In this document: positions 34,260 to 54,274 of the stretch, in pieces
Numbering within the stretch: position 1 is the first letter of the stretch
How the letters are laid out: each line of letters opens with the position of its first letter
IMG/VR virus record: IMGVR_UViG_3300034104_002622
Coordinates: 9,284-73,283 of that record
Strand: one strand, 5' to 3'
DNA: 64,000 nt
Source: a virus
Translations under genes and position numbers: made by a program
The notes under the pieces: model-generated
Databases searched by the model: none
What the model was told of the DNA's origin: nothing
What the model saw: the letters and a program-made list of their open reading frames with translations, nothing else

Positions 34260-34277
34260 CCTCCAGCCCGAAGGGCT
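34260..34277 (-). promoter_or_regulatory. C-GAA-G triloop hairpin element 1 (candidate promoter for leftward genes)
   Basis: + strand CCTCC-AGCCC-GAA-GGGCT, intergenic. Confidence 0.55.
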
Positions 34278-34691
34278 CTATGAAAGCAGCTTGTTAAACT
34301 GTCTTCCGATACGTTCTTGCGCTGTTATTTCGCCGTGGCACTTTTTGCAGACGACACGAAATCCTTCTGCGGGACAAAACAGCCTCTGAATAAACCGATC
34401 CCATGAGACGAATCCTTCTGATCCGACAACTGGGATGATATGATCCGCTTGAACAGCGTTTTGGGGGAATAGATTTCCGCATACGGAGCATTTGTGTAGC
34501 TTGCATTTGCGCCCAGTGGCGGGGTTGATTCCGTGCTCGACGAAGGCAAGGTTGATAGCTCGGTATTTCTCGGGCCACCTAGCTCCTCGCAAGGCGCTTT
34601 TGATAAAGCTAATGTATCTTGCTTCTGTCCATTCTCCATTGCAGTAGGGGCGTTCGATGTCGGTTCTTTTTTTTGTCGATTTTTTAGCCAT
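34278..34691 (-). CDS. HNH-type endonuclease
   Basis: FIKSALR...CSVC...QADHIIPV...VCKKCH. Confidence 0.8.
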   Translation of the reverse strand: MAKKSTKKRTDIERPYCNGEWTEARYISFIKSALRGARWPEKYRAINLAFVEHGINPATGRKCKLHKCSVCGNLFPQNAVQADHIIPVVGSEGFVSWDRFIQRLFCPAEGFRVVCKKCHGEITAQERIGRQFNKLLS

Positions 34692-34811
34692 GACTAAATA
34701 AAAAGTGAAGCCAGTTACCGTATCTGGCGCTAGCTTGACGCTACTAGCGGTTTCATAAATACCACATATTTCAGAGGGTTTCTTAGTTTATGCTTAAGGC
34801 AACGTCTTTCC

Positions 34812-35100
34812 GTTGTGTCACTATTTTACCAGCTTTTGTCAATTGTTTTGACGCATTTTCGGACTACTGGTTTCCGAGCCGTGCCTTCCGTCTCGTTGCG
34901 GCTATGCGCTTCCGTTTATGATCCCAAGGGAGCTTATACAGGGACGACGCAGAAATTGTCCAGCTTACCGTTTACTGGGACGGCATTACGCTCCGTCGGT
35001 TCCGTTTCAATCCTTGGAGCACCATGCAACTCTAGGTATTTATCCGTATTCTCGTTTTACCGTAGTCTCTTGGTTCTATCTGCTGCACGGTTAACACAAC
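34812..35100 (-). ncRNA. Candidate structured RNA or ssDNA element with repeated ACGGA motifs
   Basis: Intergenic; closing stem GTTGTGT (34812)/ACACAAC (35094); several internal hairpins; six TCCGT copies. Confidence 0.4.
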
Positions 35101-35109
35101 AGCAAGAGA

Positions 35110-35580
35110 TTATTCTGCTTTTGCACCTTGAAGCATTGCATTGGCAGCGAAAGTGAATGCTACTTCTGCAAGTTCAGGGCGTTCTTTGCGGATCATGTAA
35201 TCGGCTGCTCTTATTCCAGTTTCAAGACATTCTTTGATTGTTGGCTTCTCAACTGGCTTTTGGATGTCTTCAGGCTTAACTGCTACTGCTCCTTCAGGTT
35301 TTGATAGCTCATCACAATTAAGACTTGCTGATCCATTGAAGGTGTTTTTTGTAAACCTTCCTCGCAGTGTCAGTGTTTCTCCTAGTGGTAGTTTCCATTC
35401 AGCGGCTGTTTCCCACATTGTCATGAACATTTCGTCTGATCCGCTTTTCAATACTACGGATGAGAAGATTTTATTGTTCTTTGCTGTTTTGGGATTGAAC
35501 TGCTTGTGAATGGTTACTGGGCCAATTGAAATGAATGTCTCTCCATCTTTGGCCGAGGCTACTTGGTGGAGAGTGCTCAT
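35110..35580 (-). CDS. OB-fold, SSB-like protein
   Basis: Beta-rich VVLK...MTMWE...GETLTLRG...FNG...LN pattern; next to ERF. Confidence 0.5.
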   Translation of the reverse strand: MSTLHQVASAKDGETFISIGPVTIHKQFNPKTAKNNKIFSSVVLKSGSDEMFMTMWETAAEWKLPLGETLTLRGRFTKNTFNGSASLNCDELSKPEGAVAVKPEDIQKPVEKPTIKECLETGIRAADYMIRKERPELAEVAFTFAANAMLQGAKAE

Positions 35581-35874
35581 TTAGAATGCTTCTTCTGAAC
35601 TGCCGCTATTTGCTGCAATTTCTTTTGCTGTTTTGATGTCACCTTTTGAAAACACAACCTTACCATTACCTAGATAGGTTTTGGTTTTCTTTGCTTCGCG
35701 ATCTTCTTGGCTTTGAGAAAGCTGAACGGATACGTTATTTCCATAATTGTCATTCTTGTCATCGACAAAAATGGACAAAGGAATGAATGTGGCGGTTTTA
35801 CCTTTGATCATTTGATCTTCGGTGAGTTTTGCGATGTCTTCTTTTTTGATGCTGGCGCTAATAATAAGTCCCAT
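35581..35874 (-). CDS. Small phage SSB-like protein
   Basis: DNYGNN.SV..SQSQE.RE...YLGNGKV with acidic C-terminus ending in Phe (EEAF). Confidence 0.55.
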   Translation of the reverse strand: MGLIISASIKKEDIAKLTEDQMIKGKTATFIPLSIFVDDKNDNYGNNVSVQLSQSQEDREAKKTKTYLGNGKVVFSKGDIKTAKEIAANSGSSEEAF

Positions 35875-35902
35875 ATTTTTGTTTTTCTTGTTTGTTTGTT
35901 GT

Positions 35903-36493
35903 TTACTTAATGAAAACTGAAGCGCATTCTGAATAAGCTGCGACTACGAGTGGTTCTTTCCCATAGGGAGTGTTTCTGGCTTTTTCCATCTTGGCATTTA
36001 GATCCTCTAAGGATTTTTGGATCTTAAAGGATTCGATGATTTTGTCCATCATTCCGTCACTTTTTTGCGAGGTGGCTTTACTTTGATCAGAATTGTCCTT
36101 TCCGTGCGTTTCCGTAGCGTCTGCGTCTTTGGTGTCATCAATGCAGAACAAGCCGTTCAGGGCGTATTTACGGGCGTAGGAGGAGCAAGCGCCCGTCACT
36201 TGAGCGTCATCCATACCTTTTTTGCTTTCAGCTTCACGAGCAAATGCTGTGGTGGAGATGCTTTCTCCTGCATGAGTGAATGTTGCTGTAGCTTTTACGT
36301 AAACACGCCCACCAACTTCAACAATTTCATCGCTGATGGTTAGGATTGCGTCCACTGCATGAAGAAATGGCTTGAGGGCTTCAAGAATTCCCTCTGCGGA
36401 TCTGTATTTGTAATTTCCAAATTTGTTCTCAAGGTTTTTTGGAGCGTTGAGGTCAACTTGGATTGTTCTTAGTTTGTCTGCTGCTTTTTGCAT
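35903..36493 (-). CDS. erf: ERF-family single-strand annealing protein
   Basis: APK...N.FG.YKYRSAEGILEALKP; KKGMDDAQVTGACSSYARKYALNGLFCIDDTKDAD. Confidence 0.92.
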   Translation of the reverse strand: MQKAADKLRTIQVDLNAPKNLENKFGNYKYRSAEGILEALKPFLHAVDAILTISDEIVEVGGRVYVKATATFTHAGESISTTAFAREAESKKGMDDAQVTGACSSYARKYALNGLFCIDDTKDADATETHGKDNSDQSKATSQKSDGMMDKIIESFKIQKSLEDLNAKMEKARNTPYGKEPLVVAAYSECASVFIK

Positions 36494-36531
36494 TTATTTA
36501 TTTGTTTTGATTTAGTTAAGGCTAAAATATA

Positions 36532-36585
36532 TTCGAACAGTTCGATACACTGAACGCTGCGCATCAGTGATCTTAGCTGTTATCC
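36532..36585 (+). mobile_element. attC-like site 1 (short family, left end of array A)
   Basis: R'' TTCGAAC ... R' GTTATCC; imperfect inverted repeat. Confidence 0.75.
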
Positions 36586-36776
36586 AAAGAAATCAGCAGT
36601 TTGGCGGCGCGTTCCAGTTCAGGATTGAGCCAGTCCCTCTTTTGCGGTAGATCCGTAAGGATGTTGCGAATCACATAGAGCGCATCCGCTAGGCGGTCAG
36701 CGGCTTCATTCGATGGGCGATAGACTCCCGAGCTATTGTCTCGGAGCCATTTGATTAGTTCAGCGTTTGATTTCAT
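36573..36776 (-). CDS. Cassette ORF (LPQKRDWL module)
   Basis: Ends inside attC1; C-terminal half similar to 43645-43920. Confidence 0.65.
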   Translation of the reverse strand: MKSNAELIKWLRDNSSGVYRPSNEAADRLADALYVIRNILTDLPQKRDWLNPELERAAKLLISLDNS

Positions 36777-36789
36777 AATTTCGGAAGAT

Positions 36790-36880
36790 GGATAACAAGT
36801 TTGTAGAGGCGACGACGGGCAGCGTCCCCATTCAGGTTGGTAGTCCTTTCCCGTCGTCGCGCCTCACATCGGCGTTAGCG
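36790..36880 (+). mobile_element. attC-like site 2
   Basis: R'' GGATAAC (complement of the site 1 R') ... R' GTTAGCG; arms CGACGACGGG/CCCGTCGTCG. Confidence 0.85.
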
Positions 36881-37071
36881 GAAGATTTCAGAATGGCTTC
36901 CAGTTTCCATTTAACGTGATAGAACCAGTCCTGACTGATCCGCCCTGAGAAGGTTGCCATGTCTCCATCGTCCTCAACGTCCGAGTAGTCCAACTCGTCA
37001 AGAATCCCGAAGATCGCTAACAAGTCATGCGAGGCAACCTCTACAACGTCTTTTGGTGGATTCTGGCTCAT
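36832..37071 (-). CDS. Cassette ORF
   Basis: Starts in the attC3 loop and ends in attC2. Confidence 0.6.
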   Translation of the reverse strand: MSQNPPKDVVEVASHDLLAIFGILDELDYSDVEDDGDMATFSGRISQDWFYHVKWKLEAILKSSANADVRRDDGKGLPT

Positions 37072-37101
37072 GCGTTCGGTGCCTCCATATTTGCGTTAGG
37101 C
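37015..37101 (+). mobile_element. attC-like site 3
   Basis: R'' CGCTAAC ... R' GTTAGGC; GAGGCAACC/GGTGCCTC arms. Confidence 0.8.
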
Positions 37102-37358
37102 AGAATTAAATCTTCACGTTCGCGCCAGAATGCCAGTTGTTCAGACCAATCGCCGGCAAACATCTCCAACGGATATATTTCGTCGTTTTTCCGGTGCAGT
37201 TCCCTCCATGAGGATTCAAAATCCTCAAGGGATTTGAGTTGCTCAAATATAAACTCGTCTAACGTCAAAGAATGCCGAACAAGACGTGAGACGCAATCCC
37301 CACTAGTCTCCTGTTGGGTTAGGGTTTTCTGCTTCGGTGGTGATTTATCGTTTGGCAT
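37068..37358 (-). CDS. Cassette ORF
   Basis: Starts in the attC4 loop; stop overlaps the next ATG inside attC3. Confidence 0.65.
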   Translation of the reverse strand: MPNDKSPPKQKTLTQQETSGDCVSRLVRHSLTLDEFIFEQLKSLEDFESSWRELHRKNDEIYPLEMFAGDWSEQLAFWREREDLILPNANMEAPNA

Positions 37359-37405
37359 GGTCTTGGGGTATAAGTGGTGGGGATGCGTCTACATTGACGT
37401 TCGTA
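37274..37405 (+). mobile_element. attC-like site 4
   Basis: R'' GCCGAAC ... R' GTTCGTA; AGACGCAATCCCCAC/GTGGGGATGCGTCT arms. Confidence 0.85.
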
Positions 37406-37620
37406 GGTGAGAATTGCAGTTCATCCAGCATATCGCTTGGATTGTTATTTCCGTTTGCCATCGCTTCAATCCATCGCGCTGGGTCAATCGTTGCGGTGTG
37501 CTTCCATCCTTTATCTAAAAGTTTTGCTTCTACTTCTTGAAGCTCTTGGTCTGAGTAACATTTTATCATTCCATCAAGAGCGTAAATAAAAAGCATTCGA
37601 TCTAATCTAATTGTTTTCAT
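37345..37620 (-). CDS. Hypothetical protein ending in attC4
   Basis: Internal ATG (MKTIRLD); C-terminus encoded by the attC arm. Confidence 0.6.
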   Translation of the reverse strand: MKTIRLDRMLFIYALDGMIKCYSDQELQEVEAKLLDKGWKHTATIDPARWIEAMANGNNNPSDMLDELQFSPTNVNVDASPPLIPQDHAKR

Positions 37621-38471
37621 GTGTTTTGGGTTTTGCTGGTAAAACATTAAATATTTCAACTACTGGCTTTCCTGTCTCTGGATGACTAATCATTTTAAAC
37701 TCAACATCAAATTTTTTGATGCGTTCTCTAAAGTTATAAGCCATGTCAAAATCTGGAAACTCAACGTAAAGGTTAGAGTCGCGTTGGCTTACTTCTTCTT
37801 CAAGTCCAGAGTCTTCTAAAGCTCGCTGAAGGTAATAAGGTAAGTATTGGATGACACTCATTTTTTAAGTTGTTTTAGGTTTTCGATGAATTGCGCTGCT
37901 TCTGTTGCTGTTACCGTAATGTTAGAGCCGGGGTCGATAGTTGTTTGTGCTCCTCCTGTCCAAGAGTTGCCTATTCGTTTAGCTGGAGAAGGCATAGACA
38001 TTATCTTCCAATGGACAACTGAGCATTCTGATACTTTCCATGAATAGGGATTACCAGCTTGCCATTCATGATAGATGGCTGATGCCGACTGTTTAAGTGA
38101 CCATTCAACCACTTTATTTTCTTTAAGTAGTTCTTGGGTGTAACGCATAGCATTTAGCCAAAGCTTCTGCTTGGCTACTTGATGCAGCGATTCGATTAGA
38201 TTCACACTCATGACAATCAATCCTCTAGCCCCGAAGGGGCTTTGCGCGCTATTAGCATTGCGTCGGCGATTGAGTATGCTCCTTTGGCAACGTCGCAATT
38301 CCAGTTGTAAGACATTGCGGCTCTTCCGGACGCTACCATGATGGCAATAGCGATATTTTCACTTTGCATGGCTTGCCCAGCGAACCAGTCGCGCAGACTC
38401 ATGCCGCGTAATGCGTCGTCTCTTTCGTGCATCGGGAACGCTTGCCCGCCGTTGTCTTGTGGTGTGTTCAT
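37607..38471 (-). CDS. Three small early genes (37607-37861, 37858-38211, 38217-38471)
   Basis: 38217-38471 has the common phage GG.AFP...GMSLRDWFAGQA motif. Confidence 0.55.
38222..38241 (-). promoter_or_regulatory. C-GAA-G triloop hairpin element 2
   Basis: CCTCT-AGCCCC-GAA-GGGGCT. Confidence 0.5.
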
Positions 38472-38473
38472 TT

Positions 38474-39316
38474 TTATTTTGATTCACGTTTGTATTGTTC
38501 GCAAACATCTTTGAATCCACAGAATGAATTGCAGAATGTTTTTTCACCTTTGCGAATTTCTACTGTTTGATTTGGTTTTTTGAGTTCTTCTGCTTCTGAT
38601 AGCGTGTCGCATAGTTTTGAAGCTCGCTTGGCTCCGGGCGACATGATTGCGTAAACTGATGGCTTTTCCCATTGCTCTTCTGCTGTGCATGGGCGTGGTG
38701 AGCCATTATAAGCCTTCCAGTGGTCTTCTACGGTCTCTTTAATTAGCTTGGCTGCGAAGTCTTGATCATAGGGTTCTACGTAGATAGCAAAGGGTGTTTG
38801 CGGATACGTGGGGTCGAAGGTTGAGCGCATGTAGGACCAATCACGTTGAAGGTAAACAATTGAAACGTGTTCTACTTCATATCCATTTTTTTCTGCTAAC
38901 CATCCATTGATTTGAATTTGTTGGCGATGTTCTGGTTTCATTTTTTCCTGAAAACCAGCAGTGTTTTTGTAGTCGAACACTGTTTTATTTTCGTAGAAGT
39001 CTATTTGTCCTGAAATTGCAATGGTCTCTCCAAGATATGGATACTCATAGTGAAGTCGTTCTTCTGCTACTTCTCCGTTTTCAGTATCTACGTTATCTTC
39101 TAGGATGGAATGAATAGCTGTTCCCATCAAAGCATGGAACATAGTGTAGGGATTTTCTTGCTTTTCGTGGTTCTTTGCCAGCCATGTGCGTTGCGGAGGA
39201 GAGATTAACTGCGTGGTTGAAAATAAAGACTTTCCTTTTTCATACTTGTCTTTTGACAAAGCGCGAATGAACGGGCTAGGAAAGCTTTTGAGGTAGGATG
39301 CTGGTGTTTGTTTCAT
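38474..39316 (-). CDS. PD-(D/E)XK (Cas4/RecB-like) exonuclease
   Basis: GTAIHSILE...EER...SGQID...DYK...Q...C..FC.FK..C. Confidence 0.85.
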   Translation of the reverse strand: MKQTPASYLKSFPSPFIRALSKDKYEKGKSLFSTTQLISPPQRTWLAKNHEKQENPYTMFHALMGTAIHSILEDNVDTENGEVAEERLHYEYPYLGETIAISGQIDFYENKTVFDYKNTAGFQEKMKPEHRQQIQINGWLAEKNGYEVEHVSIVYLQRDWSYMRSTFDPTYPQTPFAIYVEPYDQDFAAKLIKETVEDHWKAYNGSPRPCTAEEQWEKPSVYAIMSPGAKRASKLCDTLSEAEELKKPNQTVEIRKGEKTFCNSFCGFKDVCEQYKRESK

Positions 39317-40001
39317 TGTTCGATAATAGTGTATTCGTTTTTTTCGAGCAGGAATCCCGGTAATGGACCGATGAAGATCAATTCTCTTTCTTTCCAGTCA
39401 GGAATATTCATTGCGTAGACTGCCGTATAAATTTTTTGTGGATCAAGCTCTAAGTCAGTTCCTAAGAGCTTGTAAGCTTTGTCTGGTTTTACTTTGAATT
39501 TTTTGGATCTCATTTATTTAATCTTGAGCTTCTATAATTACGTTCCAGATTGAGTCAGGTATCATATCTCTAACTGCTGTGTCTGCGTATCTTGCTAGAT
39601 TTCCAGCTTCTTTCCACTTTTTTGATTTGTAAAAAAAAAGGATTTTTCTTAGGATTTTTCTGTCTTCTGTATACATTTTTCTTATGCTTTGATCTTCATC
39701 ATGCTCAGCTTGGTGATTTTTAATGATGTGCTTAAAAAGTTTGATTGCGTTTTCATCTATTGTCATTTTGAATTCTTTTTTTATTTAGTCAGGCTAAATT
39801 TTAATCGAGCACACTGCGTCCACATAGCATTATAATGGTGTAATATGGCGGGAAATCATCTCCTGCACACATTTCTATTCCCTTCAGCAACCCAAATTCA
39901 ATGCAATTTGCGTTGATGCTGTTTTTTCTGAATCCTGAATTTTTAATCAGTTTTTCCAGTTTGTTTTTTATTTCTTCTTCTGTCGGTATGTTTTTATTCA
40001 T
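39313..40001 (-). CDS. Three small AT-rich hypothetical genes (39313-39513, 39518-39766, 39801-40001)
   Basis: Consecutive short leftward ORFs. Confidence 0.5.
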
Positions 40002-40048
40002 TGTGATTTTAGCGTTGACAAATTTTTTGATTGCTTTAGGTAGCGCTC

Positions 40049-40291
40049 ATGGAAAAGAGATTCAAGAAAGTAATCACTAACCCTGCGACTGGTCGCAAGA
40101 AAACTGTGAAGTTTGGACAGGCTGGCAAGGCTGCTGACGGTGGGGATCGCATCAGGCCGGGAACTTCTAAGGGTGACGCTTATTGCGCTCGCTCTGCTAA
40201 GATTAAAGGTGATTGGAAGTCCAATCCTAATTCGCCTAACAACCTTTCACGCCGGAAATGGAAGTGCAAAGGCAGCAAGTCTATGAAGTAA
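40049..40291 (+). CDS. Small basic protein common in aquatic phages
   Basis: K.VKFGQ...YCARS...SPN..SR.KW.C; TTGACA at 40015 upstream. Confidence 0.7.
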   Translation: MEKRFKKVITNPATGRKKTVKFGQAGKAADGGDRIRPGTSKGDAYCARSAKIKGDWKSNPNSPNNLSRRKWKCKGSKSMK

Positions 40292-40317
40292 TTGCTTTCT
40301 GAATCAGAAACAGCTTT

Positions 40318-40494
40318 ATGAAAAAAAAATCTACTGTCAACTCTTCTGGTAACTACACAAAGCCTACCATGAGAAAAGCCTTGTTTAATCGCATTAAAGC
40401 TGGCACGAAAGGCGGTGATCCCGGCGAGTGGAGCGCCAGAAAAGCTCAGCTTTTAGCTTCTGAGTATAAGAAAAAAGGCGGAGGCTACAAATAA
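40318..40494 (+). CDS. Small basic protein (58 aa; DUF5872-like N-terminal part), not in the ORF track
   Basis: MKKKSTVNSSGNYTKPTMRK...GG.PGEWSARKAQLLASEYKKKGGGYK. Confidence 0.7.
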   Translation: MKKKSTVNSSGNYTKPTMRKALFNRIKAGTKGGDPGEWSARKAQLLASEYKKKGGGYK

Positions 40495-40527
40495 CAACTC
40501 TCATTAAACGTAAACTAAAATAAAAAT

Positions 40528-40689
40528 ATGAAAGCAAAACCAAAGAAAGCAATGGTGTCTCCTAAGTCTAAAAAAGCAATGTCCAAGCCAATGTTAAAAG
40601 CAGCGGCTTCGAAAAAGATGGCCAAGAAAATGCCTAAGAGTATGGCAATGGGCATGAAGATGGGAATGCCTAGCAATATGGGATATTAA
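40528..40689 (+). CDS. Lys/Met-rich peptide (53 aa), not in the ORF track
   Basis: MKAKPKKAMVSPKSKKAMSKPMLKAAASKKMAKKMPKSMAMGMKMGMPSNMGY; A-rich leader. Confidence 0.55.
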   Translation: MKAKPKKAMVSPKSKKAMSKPMLKAAASKKMAKKMPKSMAMGMKMGMPSNMGY

Positions 40690-40704
40690 TCCTATTTTGA
40701 TTGA

Positions 40705-40935
40705 ATGAAAGCACCTCAACAATCCTTGAAAGATTGGACAGCCCAAAAATGGCGAACCTCTGATGGTAAGCCAAGCAAGGGCAAAAAGAGGTATTTGCCT
40801 GATTCTGCGTGGAAGTCTTTGACGGCTTCTGAAAAGGCTTCCACGAATCGGGCAAAGGCTAAGGGTAATGCTCAAGGCAAGCAGTTTGTTAAGCAACCTA
40901 AGTCGATAGCTAGAAAAACATCAGCACACAGATGA
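40705..40935 (+). CDS. Small basic protein (DUF5872-like C-terminal part)
   Basis: QQSLKDWT.QKWRT.DGK...RYLP..AW..L. Confidence 0.7.
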   Translation: MKAPQQSLKDWTAQKWRTSDGKPSKGKKRYLPDSAWKSLTASEKASTNRAKAKGNAQGKQFVKQPKSIARKTSAHR

Positions 40936-41564: not shown

Positions 41565-41760
41565 TATTTAATTGTTTAGCTTTAATTTGTAGGTCTTTTG
41601 TTGTTTTTTCCATGTGCTCAAGAAGAATGTCTTGCATCCAATATGGAGGACAGCGTCTTCCTGACCTCCAATCGTAAGCTGTTGGCATAGAGCATCCAAT
41701 TTTTTCAGCAATTTGCTTAGCTGTGTATTTTGATATTTTTTGTTTGAATGTTTTTTTCAT
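41476..41760 (-). CDS. Small helix-turn-helix protein
   Basis: AKQIAEKIGCSMPTAYDWRSG (XRE/Cro-like). Confidence 0.65.
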   Translation of the reverse strand: MKKTFKQKISKYTAKQIAEKIGCSMPTAYDWRSGRRCPPYWMQDILLEHMEKTTKDLQIKAKQLNISKPTWSLRGFLMSLATSRPIARLWQPPS

Positions 41761-41768: not shown

Positions 41769-42938
41769 TTACAGGTCAATTTCCAAATGAATGCTCCATG
41801 CTTTAACAAGTTCGTTCATTAGAAATTGCTCAAAACGTCTTGATTCGTCTGAATAGCCAATTGTATGACAATGCTCTTCTAGCAGCGTGGTAATCAAAAA
41901 AAACAATCCTTGGTCAAAAGAACGTTCTGTTAAGTGGATAATTTCTGAATGAACAAAAGCGATGTTTAAGTTATCTTCATTTGAGATATATTTGATTTTT
42001 GCTTTTACGTCGTATCCCATTTTTGCCAAAAACTCTTTAGCCTTGGCTAACATCCGTTCGTGGCGCTCAGGCATTTCAATTTGATTGAACTCAGCGTCAG
42101 GCAATTGGCTGCGTATTTGGTGTTGGAGATTACTGATTAGTTTGGTGGGGGATTCTTCCCAGATTTCAGCTACAACTTCTTTCATTGTTACTCCCCACGT
42201 GCCGTAATATCCACGGTCAGCTTCCCAATTAGGTTTTTTCGCTGTAAATAAGTGTTTTAAGATAGACTTATTCGTTAGTTTTTCGATGCCTCTTTCAATA
42301 GACCGATAGACATCGTAGATATTAAAGATAGTGCGATCTTCTGTAAGTTTTACTTCATCTAGCAATTCGTAAGAATACATCGCTTCTTCGATGAAGCCTA
42401 CCTTAACTCCACGATAAAATATTTCGCCATCTCCTTTGTAAATGTTGATTTTGTCGGAAGAGGCAATAGGGACGCGAGCACCTACGAAAATGTTTTCGTG
42501 ATTGTCATAGCACTCTGCAAATTTTTTGTGAGTGATATAGATAGTGCTGTCTTGTATTGAAACTGGGTGGCGACCCCATTCTCCTCCTTCGTCTATTGTA
42601 TTCGAAACAAGCTCACGGTAGGCTCCTTCTAGCTCCCACTGCTTTCCAAGTTCTGTTGTAAATCCAAGCTCACGATCATTGCAAGTAATTACATCAAATG
42701 TTTTTCCACGGAATTCTTTAGTTTCTTTTCCAAATTCATATATCCCATTGGGAGTGATGATGCTGACTGTTGCGTTTTCACGAATGAGAACAGCTAAGGC
42801 TAATTTCATTCCGGTTCCAAAGAAGCCAATTGGAGAATTATTATCTGGTTTAGCATTAATTCCCATAATACTCCAGCTTTCAGGGTGAAGAATGCCAGGA
42901 GTGGTAAGCATTATTGTATTTGAACAATCTGTATTCAT
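41769..42938 (-). CDS. GHKL-like ATPase N-terminus plus zincin-like C-terminus
   Basis: IGFFGTGMK; C-terminal TLLEEHCH...DESR.F. Confidence 0.6.
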   Translation of the reverse strand: MNTDCSNTIMLTTPGILHPESWSIMGINAKPDNNSPIGFFGTGMKLALAVLIRENATVSIITPNGIYEFGKETKEFRGKTFDVITCNDRELGFTTELGKQWELEGAYRELVSNTIDEGGEWGRHPVSIQDSTIYITHKKFAECYDNHENIFVGARVPIASSDKINIYKGDGEIFYRGVKVGFIEEAMYSYELLDEVKLTEDRTIFNIYDVYRSIERGIEKLTNKSILKHLFTAKKPNWEADRGYYGTWGVTMKEVVAEIWEESPTKLISNLQHQIRSQLPDAEFNQIEMPERHERMLAKAKEFLAKMGYDVKAKIKYISNEDNLNIAFVHSEIIHLTERSFDQGLFFLITTLLEEHCHTIGYSDESRRFEQFLMNELVKAWSIHLEIDL

Positions 42939-42970: not shown

Positions 42971-42988
42971 CCTCAAGCCCGAAGGGCT
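42971..42988 (-). promoter_or_regulatory. C-GAA-G triloop hairpin element 3
   Basis: CCTCA-AGCCC-GAA-GGGCT, intergenic. Confidence 0.55.
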
Positions 42989-43023
42989 TTAAGTTTATTG
43001 ATTTATGATTTATTTGTAATTGT

Positions 43024-47528: not shown

Positions 47529-47539
47529 ATTTTTGTAGT

Positions 47540-47671
47540 TCAATATCTCTTTGAGCATCTAGGGCAGATGCCCTGTCCGTGTTTTGTGAACATCAAGGTC
47601 GCCCTGCAATCGCGGCAGAAACCGAGAAACTTGCAGAGTTTTCCGAGGTAGTATCGTAGTTTGTATTTCAT
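47540..47671 (-). CDS. 43-aa Zn-ribbon peptide, copy 2 (not in the ORF track)
   Basis: MKYKLRYYLGKLCKFLGFCRDCRATLMFTKHGQGICPRCSKRY. Confidence 0.7.
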   Translation of the reverse strand: MKYKLRYYLGKLCKFLGFCRDCRATLMFTKHGQGICPRCSKRY

Positions 47672-47689
47672 TGTGATAATTGAATTATA

Positions 47690-47741
47690 ATCGAACAGGT
47701 TGATGCGGTGAACGAAGCGTCACCGATCTTGGCTGTTCTCG
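47690..47741 (+). mobile_element. attC-like site 14 (short family, left end of array C)
   Basis: ATCGAAC-AGGTT-GAT[G]CGGT-GAAC...GTC-ACCGATC-TTGGCT-GTTCTCG. Confidence 0.85.
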
Positions 47742-48025
47742 GAAGAAATTTCCGCAGCCATCTTGTCCATGACAGCTTCAGCCGCCACATGCCCGCGATG
47801 TTTCAGCAGTTGCCGGATGCGGTGCTTTAGCTTGTTTTCGCTGCGTTCGAGCGCCTTGGCGTGTTCCTCCATCTTTTCGAGGTTGTGCCAGTCTTGCCAG
47901 TTGTTCCGCTTTATCTCTTCGGAGAGAGCGGCGGTCTTGGGAGTTTCGCGGAGTCGCTCGGACAAAGAAGACCGAGAACAAGTCGCCGCACGCAACGGGC
48001 TATCACTTTTCAATTTCTTTTTCAT
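47720..48025 (-). CDS. Cassette ORF
   Basis: ATG (MKKKLKSD) in the attC15 loop; ends in attC14 with NSQDR, identical to the end of 43202-43429. Confidence 0.6.
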   Translation of the reverse strand: MKKKLKSDSPLRAATCSRSSLSERLRETPKTAALSEEIKRNNWQDWHNLEKMEEHAKALERSENKLKHRIRQLLKHRGHVAAEAVMDKMAAEISSENSQDR

Positions 48026-48066
48026 GGTCGTTTCAGGTTCGCCCGTGCGTGGGCTAGGCGTTAGCA
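47973..48066 (+). mobile_element. attC-like site 15
   Basis: R'' CGAGAAC ... R' GTTAGCA; CACGCAACGGGC/GCCCGTGCGTG arms. Confidence 0.88.
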
Positions 48067-48329
48067 AGATGAAGTTTCACGTAGTCCATCGCCGCCCGTT
48101 TCGCTTTGTCCTCGGAGAGAGGTTCGTCGTTGCAGGAATTGTAAAGCGGCACACTTTTGCCTCTTGCCACCCAATACCAACCTTGCTTCCCGCTGTGTCG
48201 GCGAGAATACTCGTAGGCGTTGGCGTATTCCTCCCCTCCCATGTTGAGCGAGTGTCCGGGATGACCGCTGCATACACCCGCAAGCCCTGTCGGACGCGGA
48301 TTCTTTTTCCATCTCAATGCCTGTTTCAT
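48054..48329 (-). CDS. Cassette ORF
   Basis: MKQALRWKK...GWYWVA; ends in attC15. Confidence 0.6.
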   Translation of the reverse strand: MKQALRWKKNPRPTGLAGVCSGHPGHSLNMGGEEYANAYEYSRRHSGKQGWYWVARGKSVPLYNSCNDEPLSEDKAKRAAMDYVKLHLANA

Positions 48330-48360
48330 ATTTGTTTGGAGTTTTGGGGTTATTCGGTTT

Positions 48361-48445
48361 CGCTAACAAATCGCCGTATCCAACGGCGGCCAGATCTTTA
48401 TTTTAGTCGGCGTCCTTTCCGCCGTGGATAGGTTCGGCGTACACT
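48361..48445 (+). mobile_element. attC-like site 16 (R' degenerate)
   Basis: R'' CGCTAAC; TATCCAACGGCGG/CCGCCGTGGATA arms; GTA in place of GTT at 48439. Confidence 0.65.
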
Positions 48446-48599
48446 TTTGGACTTCGATGCAAAGCTGTTCGTAAATCATGGTCGCTTTATAAGGGTGTAG
48501 TGTGACCCCTCGGGCTTTGAAATTCGCCACGATTCGGTGGCGTTCTTCCGAGAGAAAACGAATGAGGCTGTCCGGCTACGGGGGCGGTACTGTATTCAT
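48363..48599 (-). pseudogene. Possible interrupted ORF (in-frame TAG at codon 8)
   Basis: MNTVPPP*PDSLIRFLSEERHRIV...; TAG at 48576-48578. Confidence 0.4.
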
Positions 48600-48621
48600 T
48601 TGCTGAATTTTTTTATTGAAA

Positions 48622-49080
48622 TTATACTTTGATAACTAAATGTTCTTTTGAATTGAAAATAGACTCTAATAAATTTTCTAAAGCAATTGAAAGATCTGGG
48701 TTATCAAGCAATGGGTTAGGGCTTTTTAATGATTCTTTAATTTTATTTTTGGTTTCATTTTTATCGAAATATCCAATTGAATCAGCTTTTTGGTATTTTT
48801 CTCCAAGTTTATTGAACAACGAGTCATTCATAACAAATCTGATGCTTACATCTCCCCGGTAATTTACTTCTACTTCAAGTTCGTTTAGTCGCTTTGGGAT
48901 AGCGATTATTGCCTTTTCTTTGATTTCTTCTATGATTTTTTCTTGTTTGATGTTGGCTTCTTCTTTTTGCTTATTGAACTTTTCTTTAGCTTTTACAACT
49001 AAAGCTTCGATAAGTTGAGATTTAGTGGGTTTAGGTTGTGTTTTTTTGATTTTGTTTGGCAGTATTAGTGTTGTATTCAT
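48622..49080 (-). CDS. Hypothetical protein (152 aa, AT-rich)
   Basis: Leftward ORF with A-rich leader. Confidence 0.6.
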   Translation of the reverse strand: MNTTLILPNKIKKTQPKPTKSQLIEALVVKAKEKFNKQKEEANIKQEKIIEEIKEKAIIAIPKRLNELEVEVNYRGDVSIRFVMNDSLFNKLGEKYQKADSIGYFDKNETKNKIKESLKSPNPLLDNPDLSIALENLLESIFNSKEHLVIKV

Positions 49081-49103
49081 ATCGTTTGATTTTATTTTGT
49101 GTT

Positions 49104-49559
49104 TTATTTGGAAAGAGTTTTTACGAAAGCTTCTGCGCGTTGCGCGGCGGTTGCGTCAAGTAAAGTTTCTGCATCCCATTCGTTACGATTTACTTTTCGC
49201 TTTTTTATTATGTTGGCTAAGTGGTCGTTAAAAATACTTCGGAAGCTCCAGTCCATTTCCCAAAGCACTTTTTCCGCTTCGTGCATCGCGTTGAGGTCGC
49301 TGAGGTAGTCGGGTAAGTTTTCTACAACGAAGCATTTTTCTTCTTTGCGAAAAAGCAGGGTTTTAACTGGTTCGTATCCTCCTTGGTAACTATTAAGGGA
49401 GGCGTTCCACGTTGGGACATCGGCGTATTCACGAGTCCACCCACACGCTTCTGCTATGGCTATTCTGATCGCAGATTTGCTGTTTTGCTGGTCGATCTCT
49501 TGCTGGAGTTTGTGCTCTTTGGCCAGACCCATATCATCTTCTTCGGGGAATCCGTTCAT
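49104..49559 (-). CDS. ABA-sandwich-like phage protein, copy 2
   Basis: RIAIAEACGW...LPDYLSDLNAMHEAEK...ATAAQRAEAF. Confidence 0.6.
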   Translation of the reverse strand: MNGFPEEDDMGLAKEHKLQQEIDQQNSKSAIRIAIAEACGWTREYADVPTWNASLNSYQGGYEPVKTLLFRKEEKCFVVENLPDYLSDLNAMHEAEKVLWEMDWSFRSIFNDHLANIIKKRKVNRNEWDAETLLDATAAQRAEAFVKTLSK

Positions 49560-49708
49560 GGTTGGTAGTCTTGGTGTATTTTTGTGTCGTGATCAAAAGA
49601 TTCGTAGATTTCTTTTTTTATTGATTGAATTAATAGTTTTGTATCTTCAATCATTAGTTGCAGTATTAGTATTAGCATTCCTGTTAATGCGAATGTTAGA
49701 GTTATCAT
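49556..49708 (-). CDS. Small membrane peptide (50 aa), not in the ORF track
   Basis: MITLTFALTGMLILILQLMIED...; ATGA-coupled to the next gene. Confidence 0.45.
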   Translation of the reverse strand: MITLTFALTGMLILILQLMIEDTKLLIQSIKKEIYESFDHDTKIHQDYQP

Positions 49709-49829
49709 ATTATATTGTTTTGGGAAAGCGTCTCCCCTAGAAATTCTTTATTTAGCCGAGGCTAAAAACCCAGTAACTAGGGAATTCGAATTGCTAGAGG
49801 AGACATTTACACACACACTGAGAAAGTGA

Positions 49830-50600
49830 TTGCCACTGGAGGTAGAGGGCGAGCTACTTGCGCCTCACTCATTCGTTCCATCTCCAGCGGCAAATTGATT
49901 GCTTCGCCCATGTTCTAGTTAGCATGGCTCAACCTGAGGCTTAGTGACTGCTGCTAAAGTCTACTTATTGCCTACGAAGCAAAGGGGTTTTGGTTGTACA
50001 AGTTACGTCTCCAAGAGTGGGATTGCACCATCTAGTATTCACTGGCATACGCCCTTACTGTTTTCACTTTACAACCAAAATTCATTACGTTTTTGAAAGT
50101 GGCAGTCTTTGTCAGCAATTGGCGTGTGGAGACGCCTACGTTTTACACAGCAACCAAAGAGCTTATCATACTCATTTGGCTCTTTGCACCCGCTCCGTAT
50201 CGTGATTACCGGATGCTGACTCACTGACAAAGACCTTTAGATAGCAGCTTACGGCTGCAAGTCGTAACGACTATGCTCAAACGGTCGTTAAGCGTCAGTG
50301 TGGGAGGAGTATTTTCTGCGTGGCTGCGAGGGCGCATACTCCATGGATATTTCTCACTCTTTAGCCATGACCTCATTTAAGCACCACATCTCAACCTTTG
50401 GTCAGGTCGCTCACGTATCAGACCTCTGCCTACATGCTGTGACTGATAGCTAATCAGTTTGCCAAGGTGGGTTGAATGGGGCTGGCAAGTGTTCTTTTTT
50501 ACCCTAAGTAAGATCGTCAGGTCATGCCCTCACTGCAAAGGCTGAAATGTGGTGACTGCTTACGCCAGTCAATCGAAGTGATGTTTTTTGTAGGCTCACT
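49830..50600 (-). ncRNA. Cluster of candidate structured non-coding RNAs
   Basis: No leftward ORF. Consecutive stem-closed domains at 49830-49893, 49899-49982, 49988-50080, 50105-50234 and 50296-50535. Confidence 0.55.
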
Positions 50601-50617
50601 TATTTATCCCAGATTGT

Positions 50618-50830
50618 TTAGAACAAAGTGTTTGGAGCAAATTTGAATTTATGCCATCCAGCTTTGTGCTTTTCTTGCGCAAGTGCTTTGCGTTCTTTGT
50701 GATCTTGCAACATGGCTTGATGTTTTTCATGCCTGTCTTGACATTTTTGCGGTGTTTCTTTTGCTTTGAATTGCGGAGTCCATTTTGTTATGAATTCGAT
50801 TTTATCGCTGTATTTTACTGGGTTTGTCAT
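50618..50830 (-). CDS. Hypothetical protein
   Basis: 70-aa leftward ORF. Confidence 0.5.
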   Translation of the reverse strand: MTNPVKYSDKIEFITKWTPQFKAKETPQKCQDRHEKHQAMLQDHKERKALAQEKHKAGWHKFKFAPNTLF

Positions 50831-50865
50831 GATTGAGTTGGTTAAAAAAAGTGGAGATGGGAGAG

Positions 50866-51405
50866 TTACCTATTGGTAAGAGTTCTGTATTTTCCGGTTT
50901 TTGACAATTGGTAAGATAGTGATGAAGGGCTAATTCCGTATTTTAATTTTAGTTTTTTGTATCCGAGTCCAGCTTTGTGATCTGCTCGAACTTCCGCCCA
51001 TGTTTCATCTGTGTGACGGCTTGCTGATCTTGATGCTTTTTGTGCGTGAAGTCTTCTTTCTTTTGGGCATCTATCCATTGCATTTTCCGATCCTGTTCCT
51101 AAGCGGATGTTTTGAGGAGTGTTATTTAGGGAGTTCCCATCAAGATGTCTTGTGTGTATGGAATTTTTTAAAGCATCTTCGCCAAATAGCTGAAAAGCTA
51201 GTAGTCGATGCACTTTTACTGGGTAGCGTTTGGAATTACCTATTCCTACGTTGAAAACATAATACGGGATTGGGTTTTGTCCTGTTCCTGATTTTGTGAT
51301 TTGTAGTTTTCGGGTTTTTCCTATTGCATTGCATACACTTCCATCATTCATTACTCGATAGCCTTTCTTGAACGCTATTCTGATTGCTTCTTTTGTTTTA
51401 GACAT
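50866..51405 (-). CDS. HNH homing endonuclease
   Basis: VHRLLA...RHLDGNSLNN...NI..GT.SEN plus a C-terminal HTH. Confidence 0.88.
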   Translation of the reverse strand: MSKTKEAIRIAFKKGYRVMNDGSVCNAIGKTRKLQITKSGTGQNPIPYYVFNVGIGNSKRYPVKVHRLLAFQLFGEDALKNSIHTRHLDGNSLNNTPQNIRLGTGSENAMDRCPKERRLHAQKASRSASRHTDETWAEVRADHKAGLGYKKLKLKYGISPSSLSYQLSKTGKYRTLTNR

Positions 51406-51453
51406 GTTCAAACTTACTTGATTAAGGGTTTGATGCAAGTCTTAATTTGGAAC

Positions 51454-51845
51454 TGGAGCTGGCGGGAGTCGAACCCGCGTCCACAACACTGTTAAATACA
51501 TTTTCTACAAGCTTAGTCCTTTCGGACATTGGGGACGCTGGTTAGGCGACCTTCCACCACTCAGTTTTTACGCCGCTGAGTTGCGTTGTTTGCCTTACTG
51601 TTTCAGGTCATCCGCCCGAAGGCACGGCGTAGGATGATCTTACCCGGTTTGTTTCCCTTCGTAGAGCGAGCGTTTCGGAGGGCGTGTTTTGCTTAGGCTA
51701 CGAGAGCAACTGTGTTGCTTCCGAAGTTTCCGCGAATGACGTTGTTGCCATTTGTTTGTTTTGAGCGGCTTATTAAAGAGGCCAGCCGATCAACCTCTAC
51801 TTGCTTATGTATCCTATCGCGTTGTGTCGAAACCATTACAGCCCC
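51454..51845 (-). ncRNA. ssrA: tmRNA
   Basis: 5' GGGGCTGTAATGGTTTCGAC; 3' GGACGCGGGTTCGACTCCCGCCAGCTCCA; acceptor stem with G3:U pair; tag ORF 51749-51693 GNNVIRGNFGSNTVALVA*. Confidence 0.93.
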
Positions 51846-51862
51846 GTAAGATTGATATTGCT

Positions 51863-51908
51863 AAAAAAAGTGATAGCTCCACCCAAGATTTTGTCAAGGG
51901 TGGAGCTA
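51863..51908 (-). terminator. Intrinsic terminator-like hairpin upstream of tmRNA
   Basis: TAGCTCCACCC/GGGTGGAGCTA stem followed on the minus strand by TCAC and a T7 run; the loop contains TTGACA. Confidence 0.55.
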
Positions 51909-51915
51909 GGTATGA

Positions 51916-52368
51916 TTAGAACGCTACGTCAAGCGATGTTGGAGCTGTGAAAGCTGCGTCCAACTCGTCAAGATCAACGTCTTCAGCTTCTGTGCTGTTG
52001 TCTGGACCGACATAGCGAACTTTGGCTTGGATGCGTCCATTGTATTCTTCGTGTTCGATGCGTAGTGCGCATTTCTGATTTACAATTTGTGCAACGTCTT
52101 TGAAGGACTCGATGCTGAATGCTTCTTTGACTTGTTTTGCTGTGTTTTGCGCTGCTGCTGGTGTCGAGCAATACATTTCGTGGTTCACGATGCGCGTTCC
52201 TGTGTCGCAATCAAGTGCAAGGTGAAGCTTGCCGTTGCGATTACGGCGCATTGCTGCACCAATTACGACTGCATTGTGAATCCCGGGCTTAATAAGTCCG
52301 ATGAACGGTGCGTTGGTGATGTTAGGTGCTGCTGCTGTTTCGATTTGTTCTGTAGTTTCAGTGTTCAT
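51916..52368 (-). CDS. DUF669-like/SSB-like protein
   Basis: LIKPG.H.A...C.L.I.HEEYNG; acidic C-terminus ending VAF. Confidence 0.55.
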   Translation of the reverse strand: MNTETTEQIETAAAPNITNAPFIGLIKPGIHNAVVIGAAMRRNRNGKLHLALDCDTGTRIVNHEMYCSTPAAAQNTAKQVKEAFSIESFKDVAQIVNQKCALRIEHEEYNGRIQAKVRYVGPDNSTEAEDVDLDELDAAFTAPTSLDVAF

Positions 52369-52458
52369 TGTTTTTCCTTTTTGTTTGTTTTAGATTGTGC
52401 GTTGTCGTTGTGTCGCACCCCACTGCTTGTTCTATTTCGTATCTTTTACATACTATAA

Positions 52459-52476
52459 CCTCAAGCGCGAAGCGCT
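52459..52476 (-). promoter_or_regulatory. C-GAA-G triloop hairpin element 4
   Basis: CCTCA-AGCGC-GAA-GCGCT. Confidence 0.55.
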
Positions 52477-52481
52477 CCCGA

Positions 52482-54209
52482 CTAACTCAGGAGTGCGTCG
52501 AGTGTAGAGGCGAATTCTTTTGCTGCGGCTTTTTCACGAATGAGCATACCGAAGCGGTTATGAGTGATGCTGTTTTCTACTGCTTTGCGACGGCGAAGCT
52601 GTTTTGCATCATTTAAGGTGCATGAAATCACTTTGCGGTTCATGTAGCGTGATGGCGACATGATGAACGTGGTTTCAGGCTCAATGTTGTTATCTGGTGC
52701 AATGGTCATGCACGGCAGGGTTTTGACTGGCTCCATCACGGATTTCTCCGTTCTTCCCATTGTCCACATATTGTGGGTTTGGGGATACCAGTAGCGACTT
52801 ACATCTTGGGATGAGGACTCAGTGCAGAATGCGTTGTGCAGTGTTGTGAGGCGTGTAAGGCGCTCAATCTTCTCTTGCATCCATTCGATGATTTGCTCGC
52901 TAAGCTCATTCGGCTCCTGCTTCATGCAACGCTCGATGGTTGCTTTGGCGCTCTCAATGCCTTCGTGGAGGTAGTCCTCGGTGAAGGCTTTGGATTGCGC
53001 GTCTCCCATCGTGATGCCGCTCTCAGACCGCTCTATGACGCTGGAAACAGCGCGGAACAGTTCAAGCTCGTCATCATCTTCGGCAAACTTGGATAGATCA
53101 ATGAAGACTTGATCGTCCTCACGCTGTGGAAAGCAGGTTAGGAACTCTTCTTCTTCGTTCATGAAGTCCACAACTTCGCCGTTTTCGTTCTCAATTGCCA
53201 AGTCTGAGCTTTCGCTGAGTAAGTGGTAATCAAGCTGTGAAAGGCTTAATGGAGCCTGATACGCTTCGTGGCCTTCAGGAATACCCTTGTTGGGGTTGTC
53301 CTGTGTAAGCTCGTTGTTTGCATCAACCCAATAGCTAGATGGTGTGCATTTTGGATTCAACCTCCAGCCGATGTAAACCAGCCAGACGTTGCCTTGCCAT
53401 GCCGATGTGTAGCTTGGGAGCCACTTGTAGCATTGTTCAATCTCACCCTTGTCGTTTGTCCACTCAATGAGCGGTGCTTCTAGGATTTGATTGAGGACTG
53501 CGGTGTCTCCACCTACAGGCACGATTCCTATGCGCGTAGCGATGTTTCTAAGAGCCCTTGACGGATACTTGTTCAGTATCGGAGCCAAGGAGCCTTGCGA
53601 AGCTCCTAGGTTGACGATACGGCCATCTGGGAGCTTCATCGCATAGTAGGCTTCAGCGTGTGCCTTGCCTTTAACTGCTGGTGGCAACTCGTGAATCACC
53701 GAATCAACCCATTGGAACCGATCTCCAACCTTTTCCTTTTTAGCCACGGCTAAATTAGCATAGTTGGATGGTGTTTGATGCTTGGATTGTTCTGCTTTCC
53801 ACGCTTTGCGCGACTTTACCGACTCAACTGCGTAGCAAGCTGCTGCCAGCCTGTCTTCTACGCTTTCAAGTCCTTCTTTGGCACGGTCAATGATGGCAAT
53901 CTCATCTTTCTCCAGCCCGTAACGGCCAAAGTTGCGATAGATCATCAGCTTTTGCTGCCACATTGCGTTTGCGAGCTGCCGGGATTCGGCAAATTTCGCC
54001 ATTTCATCAGCCATTGAACTCATCACTGGGTCGTTGGCGATTAGTTCATTCAGTGGCACTCGCGGTGCAAGCTGGATAAACGGTGCTGGTTTGATGAAGT
54101 TGCGAGCGAACGCTTCTTCCAGTTGGCACACGATGTCGTGTGGGGTGACGCTATTCTCTGCCAGAGCGTCAATTGCGGCGTTAGGATATGCTGTAACCGA
54201 TTTTGTCAT
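52482..54209 (-). CDS. Large hypothetical early protein (about 575 aa)
   Basis: Long ORF (ATG at 54209 or 54245); acidic central stretch; no motif recognised. Confidence 0.75.
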   Translation of the reverse strand: MTKSVTAYPNAAIDALAENSVTPHDIVCQLEEAFARNFIKPAPFIQLAPRVPLNELIANDPVMSSMADEMAKFAESRQLANAMWQQKLMIYRNFGRYGLEKDEIAIIDRAKEGLESVEDRLAAACYAVESVKSRKAWKAEQSKHQTPSNYANLAVAKKEKVGDRFQWVDSVIHELPPAVKGKAHAEAYYAMKLPDGRIVNLGASQGSLAPILNKYPSRALRNIATRIGIVPVGGDTAVLNQILEAPLIEWTNDKGEIEQCYKWLPSYTSAWQGNVWLVYIGWRLNPKCTPSSYWVDANNELTQDNPNKGIPEGHEAYQAPLSLSQLDYHLLSESSDLAIENENGEVVDFMNEEEEFLTCFPQREDDQVFIDLSKFAEDDDELELFRAVSSVIERSESGITMGDAQSKAFTEDYLHEGIESAKATIERCMKQEPNELSEQIIEWMQEKIERLTRLTTLHNAFCTESSSQDVSRYWYPQTHNMWTMGRTEKSVMEPVKTLPCMTIAPDNNIEPETTFIMSPSRYMNRKVISCTLNDAKQLRRRKAVENSITHNRFGMLIREKAAAKEFASTLDALLS

Positions 54210-54256
54210 GTTATCATCCTTTCTATTTTGTCCATACACTCGCATGGACGCTGGTA

Positions 54257-54274
54257 TCTCAAGCGCGAAGCGCT
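54257..54274 (-). promoter_or_regulatory. C-GAA-G triloop hairpin element 5
   Basis: TCTCA-AGCGC-GAA-GCGCT. Confidence 0.55.

Follow-up and report, generated by a model that had tools for sequence, protein, structure and literature searches.

The stretch of DNA analysed here (the window) comprises 64,000 nucleotides, bases 9284-73283 of a single 73,283-bp virus record (IMG/VR record IMGVR_UViG_3300034104_002622), and the genome concerned is designated G000. The subject of the analysis is a small hairpin with the triloop C-GAA-G, five copies of which lie ahead of leftward genes. These genes belong to an early/replication block of leftward open reading frames (ORFs) that runs from approximately 58177 down to 23633, and rightward ORFs at 1-23621 and 58610-64000 make up a structural module with almost no recognisable products. 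Scans with PHROG and Pfam profiles assigned to the early block a phosphatase-like protein, HNH endonucleases, a RecB-type exonuclease, an Erf-type annealing protein, a DUF932 protein, a primase/helicase, MazG and an RNA-ligase-like protein. The positions of the hairpins and of the principal genes are given in Table 1.

Table 1. Hairpin copies and principal genes of the window (hairpin distances are to the start codon of the gene downstream)
Feature	Position	Strand or direction	Details
Hairpin copy 1	34260..34277	+	Template CCTCC-AGCCC-GAA-GGGCT; sense AGCCC-TTC-GGGCT-GGAGG; adjoins stop codon of HNH gene; ATG 34254 is 10 nt on; same site in G001
Hairpin copy 2	38222..38241	+	CCTCT-AGCCCC-GAA-GGGGCT; 14 nt ahead of internal ATG 38212
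Hairpin copy 3	42971..42989	+	CCTC-AAGCCC-GAA-GGGCTT; 36 nt ahead of 389-aa gene
Hairpin copy 4	52459..52476	+	CCTCA-AGCGC-GAA-GCGCT; 5 nt past stop of 575-aa gene, 95 nt ahead of 150-aa gene
Hairpin copy 5	54257..54274	+	TCTCA-AGCGC-GAA-GCGCT; 52 nt to ATG 54209, 16 nt to ATG 54245
Giant ORF, 5353 aa	7560..23621	+	Structural module; co-conserved with the hairpins in 7/7 genomes
Primase-helicase	28545..30380		phrog_239, 3e-94; T7 gp4-like
HNH gene	34278..34691	leftward	
389-aa gene	41769..42938	leftward	phrog_8203
150-aa gene	51916..52368	leftward	tmRNA gene next downstream
575-aa gene	52482..54209	-	No candidate function

Exact matches to AGCSCGAAGSGCT were found on the + strand at 34265, 42976, 52464 and 54262; 0.03 matches would be expected, and four or more were obtained in 0 of 100 dinucleotide shuffles. 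A 6-bp stem distinguishes the fifth copy (38227-38241). No further copy exists elsewhere in the 73,283-bp genome: all five are on the + strand and none is on the minus strand, and the approximately 35 kb of structural genes contain none. A reading of the window made earlier from its letters (the sequence-only reading) had described five triloop hairpins, each upstream of a leftward gene. All five were confirmed, the coordinates it gave being the starts of the 5-nt 5' flanks (CCTCC at 34260, CCTCT at 38222, CCTCA at 42971 and 52459, TCTCA at 54257), and each does precede a leftward gene, at 10 to 95 nt from its start. The GAA loop of every copy lies on the strand that templates the leftward genes; read in gene direction, the copies follow the pattern AG-N-S-C TTC G-S-N-CT, then N-G-A-G-(G/A).

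Conservation of the hairpin in seven genomes

No match among GenBank phages was obtained by megablast with positions 30001-55000 or by tblastn with the 587-aa ORF, and the GenBank relatives of the primase and of the 389-aa gene are distant and mosaic (approximately 30% identity). Closer relatives were found in IMG/VR. The mosaic genome G001 (70.6 kb), with 85-98% nucleotide identity to G000, carries five copies, four of which are homologous to those of the window, while one with a different stem lies in a replaced segment. In G002 (79.5 kb, 58% GC), where the C-terminus of the giant protein encoded by the 5353-aa ORF is approximately 33% identical, the hairpin recurs on the sense strand of the early block. 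When IMG/VR was scanned blind with one stem variant, most hits were single and presumably due to chance, and four contigs of 67-73 kb carried several copies each. All four of these hairpin-retrieved contigs were found to encode the giant protein (E values 1e-149 to 4e-237), so that hairpin and giant protein together are markers of a single phage lineage. A metagenome scan for further relatives of the giant protein yielded 3 loci. The phage was present in 24 runs, all of lake or freshwater DNA; these lake-water phages of approximately 70 kb form a previously undescribed family, and their lineage is barely described.

A census of triloop hairpins, made without choosing a loop beforehand, was carried out on seven complete genomes, G000 and six relatives (approximately 67-80 kb, GC content 39-58%). 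Perfect triloop hairpins with stems of 5 bp or more numbered 758; the class with C-TTC on the sense strand accounted for 36 of them, compared with 11 in the next class and with 2.0 expected from 20 dinucleotide-shuffle sets. Pooled over the genomes, 36 copies lie on the gene-sense strand and 2 in the opposite orientation, with 5, 5, 6, 4, 7, 5 and 4 copies per genome, and at least 20 of the 36 escape even an intentionally greedy ORF map, in which only 9% of the sense blocks remain free of ORFs. Conservation in relatives, which the sequence-only reading had named as a check on its proposal, was thus strongly positive, the sense copies being placed at the same orthologous genes. It is near certain that the element is real, conserved and functional.

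Stems of the types AGCCC, AGCGC, AGAGC, AGGCC, AGCAC, AGACC, AGAAGC, AGCCCC and AAGCC were seen. In an alignment of 36 rows, four of the five pairs change on both sides (28 cells, compared with 7.0 +/- 1.8 in shuffles), and the covariation that had been proposed between AGCCC/GGGCT and AGCGC/GCGCT is real. The 100% pairing of the stems is circular, as perfect stems were selected, and it is the enrichment together with the variety of stems that carries weight. Orthologous sites also vary in their stem, which after the 575-aa gene is AGCGC in G000 and AGCCC in G002.

The sequence C-GAA-G is on the template strand in all 36 copies. A covariance model built from the census rows retrieved further sense-strand copies with the loops TCC (twice), TGC, TAC and TTT, as well as copies with one stem-base mismatch. 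On the template strand the variant loops read GGA, GCA, GTA and AAA, and G...A is kept in four of the five variants. Two variants sit at orthologous positions (TGC ahead of the 389-aa gene of G007 and TCC ahead of the DUF932 gene of G002), and the loop variants were therefore taken as true members of the family. The flank on the sense strand is conserved as well: G is found at +8 from the loop centre in 30 of 34 distinct rows, and three of the four exceptions have stems of 4 or 6 bp with the G two bases past the stem. A is present at +9 in 21 rows and G at +10 in 22, and from +12 to +17 the positions are A or T in 21-30 of the rows. Shorter copies had also been reported near 56885 and 56927. 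They exist, as GCGAAGC (56885-56891) and CCGAAGG (56928-56934), but nothing ties them to the family and the covariance model misses both; SCGAAGS heptamers are barely enriched in the window (42 compared with 30.2 +/- 5.8, a count of 42 being reached in 1 of 100 shuffles), and the copy at 56922-56948 is the tip of a longer terminator-like hairpin of the minus strand.

The copies stay with the gene downstream. A hairpin lies approximately 22-63 nt upstream of the 389-aa orthologue in all six genomes that have this gene, and at most 400 nt upstream of the DUF932 orthologue in five of seven, the G007 copy being 409 nt upstream. The 575-aa gene has a hairpin on both sides in 7/7 genomes. Upstream neighbours differ at orthologous hairpin sites; the G001 counterpart of copy 2, for example, has the stem AGCGC and another upstream gene. 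In G005 one copy stands 83 nt ahead of a tRNA-Arg gene, which needs a promoter and no ribosome site, and the G002 copy at 5100 is at the very start of the sense block. It is likely that the orientation of the element follows transcription and that its place is tied to the gene downstream. The block shows no enrichment of sigma-70-like sites, which are if anything depleted (16 compared with 22.8 expected, and 25 compared with 29.6).

Around copy 2, a contig of run X21 has positions 37861-38540, which hold the hairpin, swapped for 1054 other letters, and G001 differs here too; this stretch is a variable cassette, one boundary of which is hairpin copy 2. An apparent contig joint (42991->34301), which appeared when four runs were compared with 34301-54300, proved to be an artefact of two identical hairpins, and nothing informative on the hairpins was found among the contig rows shown for these runs across that interval.

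A possible transcription start signal on the template strand

Loops of the form G-N-A closed by C:G, with a sheared G:A pair, make extraordinarily stable DNA mini-hairpins (PMC13037366, in the part of the text available). We infer, on balance, that the element acts as a mini-hairpin in the DNA of the template strand rather than in RNA, because its G-N-A loop closed by C:G matches this rule, an argument which is suggestive and not decisive. We know of no RNA rule for U-N-C triloops, which the sense RNA would carry. The reading that we rate highest, with chances a little short of even, is that such a mini-hairpin is a transcription start signal, working like the hairpin promoters of phages N4 and LUZ7. 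By its sequence the element is a d(C-GNA-G) mini-hairpin: the stem measures 4-6 bp, its closing pair is C:G and the triloop on the template strand is G-N-A, while the sense strand continues with N-G-(A/G)-(G) and then an A/T-rich stretch. It would extrude or persist on the template strand and would be recognised by transcription machinery specified by the phage, RNA synthesis beginning a short fixed distance downstream, probably with G, and the units so started would be those of the early/middle gene block. This reading is favoured because the sense flank is conserved, because no U-run follows the hairpin and because the copies stay with particular downstream genes.

The closest known parallels are also instructive in where they depart from the element. 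N4 promoter hairpins require -8G, -9C, -10G, a purine at -11, -12A and a sheared G:A pair (PMC4496689, available text), and in the N4 GenBank record they share a GC-G(A/G)A-GC core, the P1-type sense copy being GTTGC-TTC-GCAAC. The N4-like geometry put forward by the sequence-only reading was borne out: the triloop is on the template strand, with C:G closure and a G...A loop, in several gene-oriented copies, the stems (5-7 bp) and loops (3 nt) are of the same size, and the P1-type GC-GAA-GC core is that of window copies 52464 and 54262. However, no gp50-like or T7-like polymerase was detected in the hairpin-family genomes, tblastx of the whole of G000 against N4 bases 1-50000 gave no match at E <=1e-3, the PHROG scans assigned no ORF here to an RNAPII, a DNA polymerase or an N4-like structural gene, and the covariance model of the hairpin family does not match N4. 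Conservation here rests in the base of the stem (AG/CT) and in the G two bases past it, whereas N4 has a run of four A residues and a start 11 nt from the loop centre; only stems of the AGCGC type (18 of 34 rows) have an equivalent of the N4 -8G. The copies are spread across approximately 20 kb, compared with a cluster at the genome end in N4. With neither a cognate polymerase nor kinship found, the hairpin element stands outside the N4 system.

Several hairpins across a gene block have a precedent in LUZ7, in which hairpin promoters open both early units (nine promoters) and middle units, and G is the first base preferred (PMC9163698, available text). As far as that text goes, the likeness includes many hairpin promoters per genome, GC-rich stems, 3-nt loops, a G start and use beyond immediate-early genes, whereas LUZ7 encodes the virion RNA polymerase (vRNAP) and the RNAPII by which its promoters are read, and its starts, 13-15 nt from the hairpin centre, were mapped by ONT-cappable-seq. 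Among the papers listed in searches of the literature, none reported such hairpin elements outside N4-like phages, and the mini-hairpin review was the one relevant to GCGAAGC and phage promoters.

A number of features weigh against a start signal, some of which would suit an element acting in RNA. Many copies adjoin the stop codon of the gene upstream (-17 to +5 nt after the 575-aa gene in 7/7 genomes), which fits a 3'-end or intercistronic RNA element equally well, and a few lie within long sense ORFs, such as the one at G005 sense 5480 in a 312-aa ORF. The position corresponding to +1 of N4 is not conserved. Counting 11 nt from the loop centre had been said to land on a template C in three copies; this C is present in four of the five (34260, 38223, 42971 and 52459, with T at 54257), but the ruler does not hold across the family, in which G is found at +11 in 10 of 34 rows, and in three copies whose stems are 4 or 6 bp long the spacing of the conserved G is constant relative to the base of the stem and not to the loop. 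Strict analogy with N4 is further weakened by the position of the first hairpin, which in G000, G001 and G004 is 3.6-3.9 kb into the sense block, behind several small genes; the offset suits 'middle' units better than immediate-early ones. Sense RNA hairpins are also predicted to fold well (-7.4 to -11.5 kcal/mol), and nearest-neighbour energies for the DNA are modest (-3.9 to -5.8, in a model without a mini-hairpin term), so that folding energies do not discriminate between RNA and DNA. A wobble-pair test of RNA against DNA gave only noise, with 120 one-mismatch copies on each strand.

An explanation to which some of these observations lend themselves is an RNA-level element (AGCSC-UUC-GSGCU-NGAG) in a polycistronic sense transcript, which would serve as a processing site, as a stabiliser of 3' or 5' ends or as an operator for an RNA-binding protein. 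The uniform sense orientation of the copies and their location between genes agree with it, as does the failure to detect a polymerase that would read a DNA hairpin, and at 34265 the sense flank GGAGG, 5 nt ahead of the ATG, forms a well-spaced ribosome site. The Shine-Dalgarno alternative that had been raised for this flank holds at 34265 only and fails for the copies 36-95 nt away from their genes. Against action in RNA, the conserved feature of the loop (T...C on the sense strand, G...A on the template) is the documented rule of DNA mini-hairpins, copies follow the downstream gene while the upstream genes change, one copy precedes a tRNA gene and the G002 copy at 5100 opens its sense block. 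Across the family, moreover, the hairpin is not consistently followed by a run of U (from +12 to +17, T is present in 7-18 of the 34 rows). On this evidence an RNA-level role is rather unlikely, though it deserves to be kept in view. For want of such a U-run an intrinsic terminator was rejected; a lax terminator scan flags 34274..34260 (minus) and 42975..42989 (+ only). A lambda-type boxB/N antitermination system was set aside, as its purine-rich loop would fall in the antisense RNA, and so was T4 RegB-type cleavage at GGAG, a word present in 1 of the 5 window copies.

Two further explanations also place the element in DNA. It could be a single-strand priming signal, that is, a mini-hairpin read by the primase-helicase of the phage or by a host primase on the model of RSF1010 ssiA and the G4 origin. 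Mini-hairpins occur at exactly such sites, and ssiA (CCGAAGG, read by the RepB' primase) and the G4, St-1 and alpha3 origins resemble the element in having a mini-hairpin core on single-stranded DNA that is recognised together with flanking bases (PMC13037366, available text). The strict strand specificity of the copies would suit a replication signal, and the phage has a primase/helicase (Table 1) and no recognisable DNA polymerase in the window; this T7 gp4-like protein was the sole primase seen, no search aimed at RepB' having been made. Those systems have one or two origin sites, whereas here 4-7 sites are tied to gene starts within one early/middle block and are missing from the structural genes, and priming need not give an intergenic preference or a fixed place ahead of particular genes. 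In addition, the hairpins would lie on the leading-strand template if forks move with transcription. In known priming signals synthesis runs into the hairpin, and the conserved flank is here on the side away from such synthesis. A priming role is accordingly considered improbable. The remaining explanation is that a strand-specific nickase or an HUH-type enzyme acts at the element, or that phages exchange modules there, the element being a hot spot or a boundary. Nic sites have the format of a hairpin whose flank on one strand is fixed, which the element matches, and one copy (38227; 5900 in G001) borders a segment in which G000 and G001 differ and which is replaced in run X21. Only 1 or 2 of the 5 copies, however, are near a break in homology between G000 and G001, no HUH- or relaxase-like protein was found in PHROG and Pfam scans of the window ORFs (Pfam being applied to part of the ORFs), and the tie to particular downstream genes would be left unexplained; a role of this kind appears very improbable.

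Search for a polymerase and the giant virion protein

If the hairpins are start signals, a polymerase should read them, and the searches for one also count against that reading. The sequence-only reading had proposed promoters for an injected RNA polymerase, a proposal that is unsupported. No RNA polymerase was named by the PHROG and Pfam scans of the window ORFs, and no DNA polymerase was recognisable by these scans anywhere in G000. PF00940 matched 0/7 genomes, while the same search detected N4 RNAPII (9.6e-15) and vRNAP (0.007), and hhalign comparison of 13 windows of the giant-protein family with an 8-sequence alignment of Schitoviridae mini-vRNAPs gave a probability of at most 0.2% for each window. 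N4 gp50 showed no similarity to the giant ORF by phmmer or blastp. When five blocks of the giant protein were compared as profiles with all sequences of the PDB, none gave a match below E 0.019, and the first 5000 residues, searched as a single sequence, had no match in the PDB. The giant protein is without D.D.D, DxDGD or a T7-type motif B. DxDxD occurs four times among the G000 ORFs of at least 100 aa, and its occurrence in a 732-aa ORF of the virion module is absent from the orthologues in G002, G005 and G007, so that no conserved DxDxD was found.

A fold search of the virion protein, which had been suggested as a check for a polymerase fold, also proved negative. The C-terminal 1104 aa of the giant protein are predicted to be all-helical (pLDDT 67), and the search with this model, which covers the C-terminal block only, gave no match at E <=0.001; POLRMT matches at ranks 45 and 47 are noise (TM about 0.10). 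We infer from the model that the C-terminus may resemble a component of an ejection device or channel more closely than it does an enzyme. Members of the giant-protein family range from 4,652 to 6,307 aa, and among ten of them conserved blocks were found at approximately aa 100-800 (Gly/Ala-rich), 1400-1850, 2100-3600 (weak) and 4300-5350. The protein is mosaic, the C-terminus of G001 being closer to that of P0003 than to that of G000. No PHROG or Pfam family matched it except one weak PHROG of unknown function, and Atlas leads were weak (0.79-0.83; LPD38/LPD39).

These negative searches lower the odds of an injected polymerase without removing them, because giant virion proteins can hide polymerases: gp96 of P23-45 is likewise invisible to ordinary sequence searches (bioRxiv 10.1101/2022.12.01.518664, available text). 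The giant protein here resembles P23-45 gp96 (5,002 aa), gp66 of the crAss-like phage phi14:2 and N4 gp50 in being a giant protein of the virion module without recognisable domains, and it differs from them in that DxDxD (two-barrel) or T7-like motifs are present there and neither is present here. The promoters of P23-45 also differ, being AT-rich or GC-rich motifs, and the word 'hairpin' is absent from the text of the preprint. The giant protein is thus a candidate carrier of an unrecognised enzyme. It is nonetheless unlikely that an unrecognised RNA polymerase, located in the giant protein (its N-terminal or central blocks) or in the 575-aa protein, starts at the G-N-A mini-hairpins.

The 575-aa gene likely begins at ATG 54209, in keeping with the 575-aa homologues, and not at ATG 54245. 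An AF2 model of the protein (pLDDT 69.7) is alpha+beta with no recognisable fold; Foldseek returned nothing at E <=0.001, and VIA-align matched a helical hairpin only (Z about 8, residues 403-472), a result which does not imply that the fold is novel. The protein has an invariant acidic motif, N-E-E-E-E-F (at approximately residues 351-356), and an L-D-Y-H-L-L motif. In public metagenomes the gene falls into 61 clusters, none of which has a name or a Pfam domain.

Hairpin promoters on a single-stranded template have so far been known from N4-like phages only, where they are read by a recognisable T7-like polymerase. Here the same DNA device is present in a lineage without any recognisable polymerase and without any detectable gene in common with N4 bases 1-50000, where the polymerase genes of N4 lie; strand, loop rule and place ahead of the same genes have all been kept across GC contents of 39-58%. 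If the hairpins are promoters, they would point to an unrecognised polymerase or to an unrecognised way of steering the host enzyme, and the hairpin could be used as bait; were a polymerase of the phage to read them, this would be a second, independent invention of the hairpin-promoter strategy of N4, by a phage lineage widespread in fresh water. Should the hairpins have some role other than that of promoters, they would be intercistronic signals of a new class, in which the loop is unusually strict.

Other features of the genome

By PHROG and Pfam scans, no terminase, portal or major capsid protein was found in the structural module (window 1-7541 and 58610-64000; L015 1-9283), in which the names are limited to an endolysin, a tail-fibre assembly protein and a tail chaperone-like protein. 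A tRNA-Met gene (anticodon CAT) is located at 58527-58600 (+), just ahead of a rightward 592-aa ORF; among the relatives, other tRNAs are Cys in G001 and Arg in G005. A complete tmRNA gene lies within the early block at 51451-51845 (-) (Rfam RF00023, 137 bits, E 1.6e-53), downstream of the 52464 hairpin and of the 150-aa gene, and the tag peptide predicted by ARAGORN is GNNVIRGNFGSNTVALVA. ARAGORN also places a tmRNA gene at the corresponding position in G001 and G004.

Between divergent genes, 56530-57067 is a stretch of 540 bp without genes, which may be an origin or control region; it holds repeated words of the type CCC(C)AAA (56680-56740) and two occurrences of the word TCTGAG-(A/G)-(G/T)-ATAAAAGCTC (56745-56800). 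At 40049-41564 (+), three rightward ORFs are set against the leftward block (an 80-aa ORF, phrog_14910 and phrog_3704, the last labelled 'ferredoxin') and may represent a moron-like insert. Two identical small hairpins, GAGGC-AAC-GCCTC, are located 1.1 kb apart at 43396-43408 and 44519-44531 with similar flanks, which suggests a duplication of small genes in the GC-richer stretch at 44-48 kb.

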